DNA of 64,000 nt from a virus (IMGVR_UViG_3300050132_000248:1-64000); one strand, 5' to 3'; shown: positions 28,137-43,493, counted from the stretch's first letter. Made by a program: numbers and translations. The notes: generated from the sequence alone by a model not told the origin.

Positions 28137-28484
28137 TTATTTCTTTTTGATTAAATTATACTCTGCTTCTGGCATATACTCATTGAACATTCTTTTACCT
28201 CTCCATTCAATTCTTTCATTATTTCCAATCCATACAAGTCCTGAATCTCTTGCAGCTCTTTGTTCTGCATTTGATTTACTCCAATCACCTCTATATCTAC
28301 CATTTGCAAAAGCTTTCATATATTCGTCATAGAGCTTTACAGAACATCTCTTACAAAGATTAGTTGGATCAAAAGGTTCAGGACTCCCAGGATCAGCACA
28401 ACCAAATGGGATATAGGAATCCATTTCACTATATTTGAAGAATACACCACAATGTCCACATTGATTACCTACATATCTTTTCAT
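28137..28484 (-). CDS. hypothetical zinc-binding protein
   Basis: CGHC...LCKRC. Confidence 0.6.
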   Translation of the reverse strand: MKRYVGNQCGHCGVFFKYSEMDSYIPFGCADPGSPEPFDPTNLCKRCSVKLYDEYMKAFANGRYRGDWSKSNAEQRAARDSGLVWIGNNERIEWRGKRMFNEYMPEAEYNLIKKK

Positions 28485-28485
28485 A

Positions 28486-29670
28486 TTAGTGAGATTTAAA
28501 ATTGTAAACAGTTTTAATAGTGTCTATTACATCTACAGTATCAACAATTGCTGTTCTTATTTCTTCAATAGATTTGTATGCCTGTGGAGATTCATCAAGA
28601 GTTTCAGGAACAACAGATGTGCTATAAATATTCTTCATAGAATCAGAAAAATCATTCATGTTTATAGTTGCTTTTGCTCTACTCCTACTCATCAATCTAC
28701 CTGCTCCATGAGGTGCCGAATAATTCCATTCTTCATTTCCTTTTCCAACACACAACAAAGAACCATCTCTCATGTTTATAGGAATAATAAGTCTTTGTCC
28801 ATTCTCTGAACTAACAGCTCCCTTTCTTAGGATCATTCTCTTGAAATCTATGTAATTATGTATTGTCTCAAATCTATCTACCTCTCGAAGATTTGCTTCT
28901 TTTATTATGATTTCAGCCATTGTTTTTCTATTAAGAATGGCAAATTGCTGAACTATTGACATATCATTCATATAATTTGCAAAATCATCTCCTGAGAGAA
29001 AAGCTAATTCCTTATCTGTTACGGGCTTCTTTATTTTCTTAAGTTCTGCTGCTATCTCCTTTTCTCTTCCTTCCTTCTTTAATTTATCAATGAGAGCTTG
29101 TGTAATAGTACTCATTTCATTAACATTCTTGAAAGCTGTATCCTGATAATATTTACAAACATCTCCTCCAAGTTTCCTGCTTCCTGAATGAATAACCAGA
29201 TAGAGTTTTCCAGTATTTTCAGATTTTCCTATTTCAATGAAATGATTTCCTCCTCCAAGTGAACCGATAGAAAGAGAGGCTCTTCCTAAATCAACATGTT
29301 TCTGACAACGTAAATTTGAGAAATCAAATGATTTTTTTGATTCTTGATGTATATTAAATCCACTTGGAACATTATTTTTAATAACATCATCAAGAATAGC
29401 AAAATCAATAACGTCTCCTTTCAGTTCACTGGTGAGCATTCCACAACCAATATCAACACCGACTAAATTAGGTGTAATTTTATCAGAGATGGTCATAGTG
29501 GTTCCAACAGTACATCCTTTCCCAGCATGAGCATCTGGCATAATCCTGATTTTAGCATTTTGGTATGCTTCAAAATTTGCTAATTTCTTCACTTGCTCAT
29601 ATGCTTCATACTCAAAGGTTTCTGCATACACAAGGGTTTCTATTCCTTTGATATTCTTAATTGTTATCAT
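28486..29670 (-). CDS. rtcB: RtcB RNA 2',3'-cyclic phosphate/5'-OH ligase
   Basis: MPDAHAGKGCTVG, VGVDIGCGM, SLGGGNHFIE, IHSGSR, HNY, RKGA, PHGAGR, DESP.AYK. Confidence 0.93.
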   Translation of the reverse strand: MITIKNIKGIETLVYAETFEYEAYEQVKKLANFEAYQNAKIRIMPDAHAGKGCTVGTTMTISDKITPNLVGVDIGCGMLTSELKGDVIDFAILDDVIKNNVPSGFNIHQESKKSFDFSNLRCQKHVDLGRASLSIGSLGGGNHFIEIGKSENTGKLYLVIHSGSRKLGGDVCKYYQDTAFKNVNEMSTITQALIDKLKKEGREKEIAAELKKIKKPVTDKELAFLSGDDFANYMNDMSIVQQFAILNRKTMAEIIIKEANLREVDRFETIHNYIDFKRMILRKGAVSSENGQRLIIPINMRDGSLLCVGKGNEEWNYSAPHGAGRLMSRSRAKATINMNDFSDSMKNIYSTSVVPETLDESPQAYKSIEEIRTAIVDTVDVIDTIKTVYNFKSH

Positions 29671-30290
29671 ATGTCAGTTGCACCCACGCTTTTAGTTTCT
29701 GTTATCTTCACCCCTGAATTCAATAATTCAATGAATCCGTCATAACTGCGTTGATTGAGCCATGTAAGACTATTTTGCATATAGGATAGTTTATTAGAAC
29801 CTTCTTTAAGTGATTTCTCCTTTTTCTGAAACACTTCAAGTTTTAGAGCTTCTACTATCTGTTTTGCATCTATCTCGCCTTCCAAAAGAATCTTATTAAA
29901 CTTAGTTCGACAATCATCCTTACCCACTCTCAAGCTTCTACTCCCTTGAAAGGTTTTACCTTTATATTCAAAGGAATCACTACGAGGATATATTTCCCAG
30001 AAATCATCAAACTCTGTACATATTACTTTTGGCTTAATAATCTTCTTCTTATCCTTGGAATCTATAAACACTAATAATTCCTTTCCAATTGTTGTTAATT
30101 TAGCTTCTGTTTCAAAGACAAGCCCTTTTCTAATTAAACTTTGGTGAATGAGAGCTATCTTACTGCTCTCATTCACATTTTTAGAAATGTCAGTACCTTC
30201 ATCAATCAGTTTTAGGATACTTATATGATCGAGGTTGTAACCCTTCTCAACGATTTCCTGTATTTTTTCAATTGTTAGTTGTAGTTTCAT
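29667..30290 (-). CDS. phage replication initiator/replisome-organiser-like protein
   Basis: N-terminal wHTH-like region; FDDFWEIYP...TWLNQ motif typical of phage initiator C-terminal domains. Confidence 0.6.
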   Translation of the reverse strand: MKLQLTIEKIQEIVEKGYNLDHISILKLIDEGTDISKNVNESSKIALIHQSLIRKGLVFETEAKLTTIGKELLVFIDSKDKKKIIKPKVICTEFDDFWEIYPRSDSFEYKGKTFQGSRSLRVGKDDCRTKFNKILLEGEIDAKQIVEALKLEVFQKKEKSLKEGSNKLSYMQNSLTWLNQRSYDGFIELLNSGVKITETKSVGATDI

Positions 30291-42187: not shown

Positions 42188-42523
42188 TTACTTGCTGAAT
42201 TTCTTTTCCCAAAGAGCAATAGCATCTTTGACATTTTTGATTCTTGAGTCATAATCATCATCCTCATACCAAGCATACTTTGCATCTGTAGGACGTTGCT
42301 TTGCCAATTCTGGTAGAAATAGCAAATGACTATTACAACCATGTATGAAGAATCTATTACCCTTCAATATATCATGTTCTATAATAACACACATGAAACA
42401 AAACTCGTTGTCTCTTTTGGCAATTTTCAATTCTTTCAATAATTCCCTGTATATGAGAATTCTGTATTTAGGAAGAATGATTCCTTTCCTGAATTTGACA
42501 TTCTTTAATTCTGTGTTTTTCAT
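42188..42523 (-). CDS. hypothetical protein
   Basis: 111-aa ORF. Confidence 0.6.
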   Translation of the reverse strand: MKNTELKNVKFRKGIILPKYRILIYRELLKELKIAKRDNEFCFMCVIIEHDILKGNRFFIHGCNSHLLFLPELAKQRPTDAKYAWYEDDDYDSRIKNVKDAIALWEKKFSK

Positions 42524-42561
42524 GTTATTTTCTCTTTAAAGTTTTAATTTATAAATAGTTG

Positions 42562-42640
42562 TAACAAGAGGAATAGTTGAAATTCCATCAAAGACTTTCT
42601 ACTTCGATTATCTTTAGCACTCCCGTTGTGCTATCTTGTT
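42562..42640 (-). ncRNA. tRNA-like cloverleaf with a 16-nt anticodon loop (function unknown; possible pseudo-tRNA or mimic)
   Basis: AACAAGA TA GCAC-AACGGGA-GTGC T AAAGA-N16-TCTTT GAT GGAAT-TTCAACT-ATTCC TCTTGTT A, then CAA; all four stems Watson-Crick. Confidence 0.65.
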
Positions 42641-42646
42641 AAAAAA

Positions 42647-42736
42647 CAAACTCTCACAAGGTTGTAATCCTTGATAGTAAATAACTTTTAGTTCTCTACT
42701 ACTCAAATAAGATCGTTCAATTTGAATGAGAGTTTG
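42647..42736 (-). ncRNA. cloverleaf-like structured element, copy 1
   Basis: Closing stem CAAACTCTCA/TGAGAGTTTG; TCAAAT/ATTTGA arm; TAGTA/TACTA arm; CAAGG-ATTACAA-CCTTG arm stacked on the closing stem. Confidence 0.5.
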
Positions 42737-42743
42737 ATATTGA

Positions 42744-42905
42744 TTAACTTTCTATCAAATAGTTATTGAATTCATCTTCATCTCCTTCAACAGAACAAAT
42801 AGTATCCTTTTGTCCTATTCCATGGAGTAATAAATATAACAGCCAGAACTCAAGAATAAGAGCAAAGGTTGATAAAATTGGATGATTGCTTACAAGTGTT
42901 TCCAT
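42744..42905 (-). CDS. small membrane peptide (53 aa, not in ORF track)
   Basis: METLVSNHPILSTFALILEFWLLYLLLHGIGQKDTICSVEGDEDEFNNYLIES*; AGGAGGA SD. Confidence 0.6.
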   Translation of the reverse strand: METLVSNHPILSTFALILEFWLLYLLLHGIGQKDTICSVEGDEDEFNNYLIES

Positions 42906-42923
42906 AATTTTCCTCCTAAAAGT

Positions 42924-43493
42924 TTATTTGTATTTTAAAGCTCTTTTTGCTATGATTATTAATTTTTTAGTAGTTACAGCAGCAGCATCAGCAGCAGCAG
43001 CATCAGCAGCAGCAGCATAAGCAGCATCAGCAGCATAAGCAGCAGCATAAGCAGCAACAGCAGCATTAGCAGCAGCATAAGCAGCAGCATCAGATCTATC
43101 TTTATCACTCAACCAATCATTTGCCCATTTATTCCATTTCTTGTCTTTATAAACTAATTTTCCCATAAGAATGGCAAAAGCAACTCTTTGATTAGTAGTA
43201 AGTTTTGGAAGTTTTATTCTCTTAATAATAGTCATATGAGTATACGCTTCCTTTAATTTATCTGATTTTGACTCTCCACTTACTTCACACTCATAAAGTC
43301 TTGGATTCTTAATATTAGCATGTATAGGATTTAGTAAAACAGCTAATAATGGATGTGAATAACAATGTAACCACCCATCTGAGCACATTTCTCCTATACC
43401 AGAAGTTGTTACTTCTTTATTTAGTTTCCATTGAAAGTCATTATGTGTTGTTAATGACTGTGTTGTAAGTTTATATCTAATTATAGGTTTCAT
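42924..43493 (-). CDS. phage protein with C-terminal Ala/Tyr/Asp repeats
   Basis: YKLT...GWLHCY...RLYECEV domain plus a GCT/TAT/GAT repeat tract at 42976-43090. Confidence 0.7.
   Translation of the reverse strand: MKPIIRYKLTTQSLTTHNDFQWKLNKEVTTSGIGEMCSDGWLHCYSHPLLAVLLNPIHANIKNPRLYECEVSGESKSDKLKEAYTHMTIIKRIKLPKLTTNQRVAFAILMGKLVYKDKKWNKWANDWLSDKDRSDAAAYAAANAAVAAYAAAYAADAAYAAAADAAAADAAAVTTKKLIIIAKRALKYK

Follow-up and report, generated by a model that had tools for sequence, protein, structure and literature searches.

Phage RNAs that look like tRNAs have been known since the stable RNAs of T4 and T5, they are very common in metagenomes and, to our knowledge, none has an assigned function. The locus considered here, from an uncultured peat-soil phage, raises the question of what such an RNA is in about as small a form as it can take, namely a full tRNA frame with some 30 nt for the decoding arm. 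The element stands alone, in a phage with neither a true tRNA nor a tmRNA, and is thus a clean, short object on which to ask whether a tRNA frame is enough for the RNA to be cut by RNase P, tailed with CCA and charged, and what a frame without an anticodon binds. An initial annotation, made from the DNA sequence, had described a near-perfect cloverleaf with a 16-nt anticodon loop and had offered three explanations, an elbow or acceptor mimic, a processing signal and a tRNA interrupted by a short insert. Chance, splicing, decay and a purely processing role are weighed below, alongside the reading of the element as a gene for a tRNA-shaped RNA that does not decode.

The cloverleaf and its setting

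The window analysed is the stretch of 64,000 nucleotides with which a complete 117,331-bp virus record begins. Terminase, portal and major capsid genes are found on the plus strand, from 49 kb, and the replication genes and many small ORFs are on the minus strand. The capsid protein is 21-26% identical to those of isolated phages (Leptolyngbya phage Lbo-JY46 and Flavobacterium phage FpV4); at least 599 stretches in IMG/VR encode a relative of this capsid, and the 80 that were kept for comparison are 90-96% identical. Between 36000 and 49000 the early region is hypervariable; of its 40 minus-strand ORFs, 8 are shared with the closest relative, whose capsid is 96% identical, and almost none with 17 other relatives. 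The closest relative possesses none of the genes that neighbour the element.

The element is held in a 220-nt gap, 42524-42743, which has stop codons in all six frames (Table 1). Its location and each of the parts listed in the initial annotation were found on the minus strand, from 42640 to 42562, with stems of 7, 4, 5 and 5 bp (acceptor, D, anticodon and T) when a tRNA template is imposed, and all 21 stem pairs are Watson-Crick. The residues named there as making the core tertiary contacts are present on direct reading (U8, A14, R15-Y48, G18, G19, U54, U55, C56 and A58), and the replacement it reported at pair 53-61 can be seen as well, this pair being U-A where G53-C61 is near-universal. 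The acceptor stem begins with A1-U72.

On the downstream side, the 111-aa protein matched only itself and a permafrost variant among 5.8 billion proteins, and it has no family match and nothing useful in the protein atlas. On the upstream side, a hairpin, CAAGG-N7-CCUUG, adjoins the 3' strand of the closing stem of the structured RNA that shares the gap with the element. This RNA has a twin on the minus strand at 46561-46684, with which it shares the closing stem (ACUCUCA.../...UGAGAGU) and the hairpin (CAAGG-N5-7-CCUUG); the interiors of the two differ, U-rich tracts follow both, and the 3' motif common to them occurred in none of the related loci fetched.

Table 1. Features of the tRNA-shaped element and of its surroundings, with positions counted from the first letter of the window
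Feature	Position	Strand	Basis or remark
tRNA-shaped RNA gene	42562..42640	minus	read directly; sole ARAGORN -i match in genome
Acceptor stem, 7 bp	AACAAGA 42640-42634 / TCTTGTT 42569-42563	minus	sequence read
U8-A9 (TA)	42633-42632	minus	sequence read
D arm GCAC-AACGGGA-GUGC, 4-bp stem, with A14, A15, G18, G19 and A21	42617..42631	minus	pair probabilities >=0.997
Single T after D arm	42616	minus	sequence read
Anticodon stem of the initial annotation, 5 bp	AAAGA 42615-42611 / TCTTT 42594-42590	minus	encloses 16 nt
16-nt loop TAATCGAAGTAGAAAG	42610-42595	minus	inside AAAGA/TCTTT
Variable-region GAT	42589-42587	minus	sequence read
T arm GGAAU-UUCAACU-AUUCC, canonical T loop	42570..42586	minus	pair probabilities 0.96-0.997
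Discriminator A	42562	minus	sequence read
3' trailer CAA after discriminator A	42559..42561	minus	commonest encoded tail in this phage group
Middle region replacing anticodon arm and variable loop	42587..42616	minus	two alternative folds
UUUUUU spacer between upstream structured RNA and 5' end of cloverleaf	42641..42646	minus	sequence; 5' end is the presumed RNase P site
Only polymorphic site, C67 to U (G6-C67 to G6-U67), acceptor stem	42568	minus	permafrost variant
Downstream ORF, 111 aa, orphan	42188..42523	minus	ATG 38 nt past discriminator
Upstream ORF, 53 aa, no family match	42744..42905	minus	
Upstream structured RNA, 10-bp closing stem CAAACUCUCA/UGAGAGUUUG	42647..42736	minus	same gap
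RtcB RNA ligase	28486..29670	minus	PHROG 1075 E 3e-130; Pfam RtcB 199.8 bits

Chance is no serious explanation for the cloverleaf. A relaxed ARAGORN search had been suggested as a check, and when run with introns allowed it recovered the cloverleaf, c[42561,42640], as its one and only call in the 117,331-bp genome, while the same setting on 340 dinucleotide-shuffled genomes gave two matches, or about 0.006 per genome. The RNAfold z-score is -3.84, with 0 of 200 shuffles folding equally well, and the intron-type ARAGORN calls inspected in 1.9 Mb of phage loci were tRNA-framed genes, with no junk among them. An origin by accident in AT-rich intergenic DNA, which we can hardly credit, could appeal to the single copy and the lack of homologues, and to the wealth of weak hairpins in such DNA, where a loose stem-plus-hairpin scan has 356 matches genome-wide. 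Against this, besides the rarity of matches in shuffled genomes, the strand and genomic neighbourhood are right, the T loop is canonical, the GG of the D loop and U8-A14 are in place, and the A-CAA tail, which is specific to this phage group, has a probability of about 0.006 by chance. The scan itself, for a closing stem plus an adjacent hairpin as a mark of further framed RNAs, was dropped as far too permissive.

The middle of the element, with about 30 nt against the usual 22, can fold in two ways. The minimum-energy fold given by RNAfold retains the acceptor, D and T arms, and its favoured middle is a 7-bp arm, AUCGAAG (42608-42602) paired with CUUUGAU (42593-42587), around the 8-nt loop UAGAAAGU. 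This arm consumes the variable region and abuts the T stem, and a single-stranded linker of 6-8 nt follows the D arm. In terms of nearest-neighbour energies, the one measure behind the preference between the two folds, it reaches -22.0 kcal/mol against -13.1 kcal/mol for the cloverleaf as annotated (about 9 better), with pair probabilities of about 0.92 for the 7-bp arm and about 0.07 for the AAAGA/UCUUU stem. The 5-bp stem and 16-nt loop originally described are there in the sequence, and the pairs are perfect, yet they belong to the disfavoured fold, and the 16-nt anticodon loop probably arises as an artefact when the tRNA template is imposed.

Decoding, splicing and decay

The tRNA-shaped element cannot decode. 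It has much in common with canonical tRNA as modelled in RF00005, including stems of 7/4/5/5, U8, A14, R15-Y48, G18 and G19, the T loop UUCAACU and the A-CAA tail, but it differs in its U53-A61 pair and in its loop, which has 16 nt (14 with a shifted stem) and A as its second base, leaving no 7-nt anticodon loop and no U33. None of the excisions from this loop gives a credible anticodon loop. Default ARAGORN calls no tRNA in the genome, Rfam at the gathering score reports nothing, and a permissive Rfam scan of the 220-nt gap has no match. The RF00005 covariance search, another of the checks suggested at the outset, misses the element over the whole genome even at E<=10, and the element lies below every RF00005 threshold tried. 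The initial view that the decoding end is not tRNA-like is borne out by the missing anticodon loop and by the failure of RF00005 and default ARAGORN alike.

The short insert fares less well. If the element were a tRNA precursor, an endonuclease of the host or the phage would remove the extra loop bases and the phage RtcB would join the halves, which would mean that a bacterial virus has tRNA splicing or repair catalysed by protein. ARAGORN does model the removal of a 7-nt intron, AUCGAAG, to leave the loop A-U-AGA-A-A with U33 and A37, and RtcB is encoded by the element's phage with no counterpart in 20 relatives. This single excision, however, places the intron at 32/33 and not at 37/38, and its product would be an AGA serine anticodon, of the unmodified-A34 type that is rare in bacteria, on a body without the serine long arm. 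The folds show no bulge-helix-bulge motif (3-nt bulges around a 4-bp helix), the genome has neither a tRNA-intron endonuclease (PF01974) nor an archease, and the neighbour genes of RtcB have no nuclease signature. RtcB is also 13 kb off, is more simply understood, in phages, as a repair enzyme for host-cleaved tRNAs, and its co-occurrence with the element is one case, and we consider splicing very improbable.

RtcB sits in the replication module, is missing from 20 related records, five of which are at least 90% complete, and no family was matched by the genes next to it, at 29667-30290 and 28137-28484. A search of the genome gave no TROVE protein, tRNA-intron endonuclease, archease or CCA-adding enzyme. 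RtcB is taken here as context only, any tie to the element being putative. A group I intron in the anticodon loop was ruled out, the extra sequence being 7-9 nt against the roughly 200 or more of such an intron, with no Rfam intron match, and so was the tRNA-like domain of a tmRNA, of which ARAGORN -m and Rfam find none in the genome.

By its sequence, the element is a singleton. An exact 24-mer taken from it found no homologue in IMG/VR, the phage GenBank collection yielded none, BLAST of the 220-nt gap against 30 relatives gave nothing, and a single-sequence covariance model found none in the 80 relatives, including the closest, or in 20 fetched regions. Neighbouring proteins used as anchors led to no homologous element, one 46%-identical locus being without it, and a degenerate pattern run on JGI metagenome contigs gave two chance matches, neither with a cloverleaf. 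As no diverged homologue was found in the relatives or metagenome contigs searched, no real covariation test is possible, and conservation of the element cannot be claimed, since it is missing from the 80 relatives and, by pattern, from the JGI contigs.

The sole other copy comes from a permafrost metagenome of a separate study, at a depth of 147 (run X2, contig L270). Over 42413-42970 it differs from the peat copy by one base, at 42568, but this near-identity extends equally to the flanking ORFs and so reflects recent common descent and not constraint. The substitution is one C-to-T transition, about half of such changes would retain a pair by chance, and the variant may be counted as weak support for the pairing. 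Within the 111-aa ORF the permafrost variant has 21 substitutions in 149 nt, 42264-42412, and this cluster inside the orphan gene looks like a mosaic recombination patch.

Could the element be a dead tRNA gene, which has suffered an insertion or duplication of 7-9 nt in its anticodon loop and whose deletion is still pending? Such a gene might well be found in one phage strain and a near-identical variant and be missing from 80 relatives, in an early region that turns over as fast as this one (8 of 40 ORFs common to the closest relative), and might have lost G53-C61. Neutral decay would, however, be expected to break pairs, and here 21 of 21 are intact, together with the residues of the tertiary core and the tail usual in this phage group, despite drift that leaves a best arm score of 14 out of 53 against sampled tRNAs, and the sole polymorphism maintains its pair. 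Contiguous deletions from the 16-nt loop never restore U33, the shifted stem gives AGA (serine) on a body without a long arm, and the inserted bases make, together with the variable region, a stable 7-bp arm. A decayed gene is, in our judgement, rather unlikely. When the arms were compared with 355 distinct tRNA and tRNA-like calls of related phages, no sequence kin were found, and since the stems are perfect although the arms resemble none of these calls, the shape of the element looks selected rather than decayed. The proposal of selection on shape, which had been made from the perfect pairing, is thereby strengthened, with the pair-keeping variant pointing the same way.

tRNA-framed genes in relatives and in known systems

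The relatives offer a view of what else occupies this place. In 10 of the 30 relatives searched, RF00005 matches tRNA-type genes that lie 10.3-18.7 kb ahead of the capsid gene, on the strand opposite to it; the element lies 12.4 kb upstream of its own capsid gene with the same relative strand. A few of these matches are ordinary tRNAs (Arg-UCU, Met). Most are of 87-146 nt and framed as tRNA-Leu with non-anticodon middles, forming shells in which an acceptor AGUCAGG/CCUGACU, a D arm GGCGGAAYUGGUAGACGC and a T arm ACAGGUUCGAAUCCUGU surround a variable middle, with RF00005 scores of 31-40 bits. In a pattern scan the shell family extends to at least 120 IMG/VR contigs, with at least 97 distinct middles of 31-60 nt among the matches listed and often several genes per locus, and the hairpins in the middles show compensatory changes within subfamilies. 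A search of the literature on tRNA-Leu-framed shell RNAs found no paper.

Across the related loci that hold shells (L116-L128, L130-L141 and L147-L266; for example L133:12530-12633, L141:15346-15680 and L225, with six copies), the middles are hypervariable, from 31 to more than 100 nt, and often in arrays. Three relatives have a tmRNA of their own (L130:16388-16771, L139:18030-18353, identical to L123:1028-1353, and L140:16862-17262); these have Rfam scores of 87 bits and tags that end in VAA or IAA, and they lie beside tRNA-framed genes.

Shells and element alike have intact acceptor, D and T arms, a discriminator A, a C-A/T-A tail and a non-anticodon middle, and they share a genomic neighbourhood in the element's own relatives. 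The hairpin of a shell middle is often 0-5 nt ahead of the T stem, which is also the layout of the element's favoured fold. Their arms, however, have no common sequence, with both RF00005 and the element model failing to link them, and the element has a D loop of 7 nt against the leucine-type loop of the shells and is single-copy. The elbow or acceptor mimic or processing signal proposed in the initial annotation sits well with this lineage, in which tRNA-framed genes with non-anticodon middles are found at the same position.

The tail encoded after the acceptor stem in this phage group, over 353 distinct tRNA and tRNA-like calls, is N73-C-A/T-A with no CCA. Its commonest form is ACAA, which, at related loci, ends 62 of the 210 calls that are ordinary tRNAs and 49 of the 143 that are tRNA-framed. 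The A-CAA of the element, at first remarked upon as CAA rather than CCA, is therefore no oddity but the local norm, and an independent hallmark of a tRNA gene. The N73-C-A/T-A tail may itself be a 3'-processing signal.

Among known RNAs, T5 RNA1-3 resemble the element in having a tRNA-type acceptor and T arm and no usable anticodon arm, and RNA1 and RNA2 have a tRNA-Leu-type D arm as well. They are located among early genes and tRNA genes, the element likewise being in an early region, and RNA3, at 73 nt, is near it in size. The folds of RNA1 and RNA2 are tRNA frames interrupted by large inserts, of 60-80 nt, where the element has about 30 nt instead of the usual 22. The T5 RNAs and the element have no sequence similarity, T5 has many true tRNAs alongside while the element's phage has none, and the element, unlike the T5 RNAs, has U53-A61 and an A1-U72 start. 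In the T5 record (AY543070) the label 'tRNA-like stable RNA with unknown functions' is given to RNA1 and RNA2, and 'putative tRNA-like RNA' to RNA3.

T4 RNAC (species 1) and RNAD (species 2) are small stable RNAs from the phage tRNA region. They are processed together with tRNAs and have tRNA-like ends. By description they are set apart from the element, being larger (about 120-140 nt) and having no four-arm cloverleaf. The biological roles of RNAC and RNAD are unknown (PMC3014915, PMC9697503).

Identity with YrlA-type Y RNAs was ruled out, there being no RF02553 match and no Ro60/TROVE gene in the phage. YrlA is encoded in Salmonella in an operon with RtcB, and its ends lie in the Ro-binding stem and not in an open acceptor stem. 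Y RNAs of this type (RF02553) are non-coding RNAs of bacteria and phages, and what they imitate is the elbow of a tRNA (Chen et al. 2014, PMC4201824).

Considering these systems together, the element most likely joins T5 RNA1-3, T4 RNAC and RNAD, and the tRNA-Leu-framed shells by design, an assignment made by analogy, while by sequence it is an independent singleton.

Proposed processing and possible roles

The best reading, which we hold to be moderately probable, is that the element encodes a small, stable, non-decoding RNA of tRNA shape, which is processed like a tRNA. It keeps what the processing and end machinery reads in a tRNA, namely the acceptor stem, A73, the elbow formed by the D loop and T loop, U8-A14 and A15-U48, with a short unrelated hairpin seemingly in the place of the anticodon arm. 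It would share the transcript of the leftward early genes, on which it would follow the upstream structured RNA in tandem. Host RNase P would then cut at the 5' end of the cloverleaf, after the U6 spacer, trimming at the 3' side would follow A73, and a host enzyme would add CCA. An L-shaped RNA would be released, and as a side effect the flanking messages would be separated. Of the roles that the released RNA may have, two seem the most plausible, that of a decoy or sponge for host factors which hold tRNAs by the acceptor end or elbow, and that of a stabilising tRNA frame which presents a small hairpin.

The separation of messages could also be the entire point. In a purely cis-acting account, which seems unlikely to us, the element is punctuation in the early polycistronic RNA, which would be cut there by RNase P and by trimming on the 3' side; the cuts would define where the upstream structured RNA ends and where the message of the 111-aa gene begins, and the excised piece would be functionless. 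A structured RNA has its closing stem 6 nt ahead of the element, an ATG follows the element after 38 nt, and a search for a promoter-like site belonging to the element found none. RNase P processing of tRNA-like shapes in bacterial and phage transcripts is already established, as in the C4 RNA of P1/P7 and the T4 tRNA cluster, with MALAT1-mascRNA as an analogue. For such a signal, however, the acceptor, T arm and elbow are enough, whereas the D-arm core, A15-U48 and a well-formed extra hairpin are also kept here, and the twin of the upstream RNA (46684-46561) has no cloverleaf behind it. Punctuation is in any case compatible with a gene for a stable, tRNA-shaped RNA.

A more specific proposal, which we regard as a long shot, is that the element is a minimal, independently evolved tRNA mimic, which would be cut by RNase P, tailed with CCA and perhaps aminoacylated in spite of having no anticodon, and which would act off the ribosome as a decoy for tRNA-attacking defence toxins, with RtcB re-sealing what they cut. 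The toxins would hit tRNA acceptor ends or loops, and RtcB would re-seal either the mimic or host tRNAs. A73, A15-U48 and U8-A14 form a set of the kind that, we presume, is read by bacterial leucyl-tRNA synthetase. A decoy tied to RtcB, if true, might connect RNA mimicry with counter-defence; as a processing signal and no more, or as a dead gene, the element would be nothing unusual.

Metatranscriptome contigs (X12, X22; depth 2-5) lie over the neighbouring ORFs and none lies over 42524-42743, which is uninformative for assembled contigs of low depth; the three runs cover small parts of a 3.5-kb stretch, they may contain carried-over DNA, and the capture of small structured RNAs is poor.

A perfect 12-nt complement of the element's loop, UUCUACUUCGAU, occurs at 2365-2376 on the minus strand, within a family-6 glycosyltransferase ORF (1876-2637). 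An antisense target near 2376 was considered, and the match was taken as chance, with about 0.05-0.1 such matches expected.
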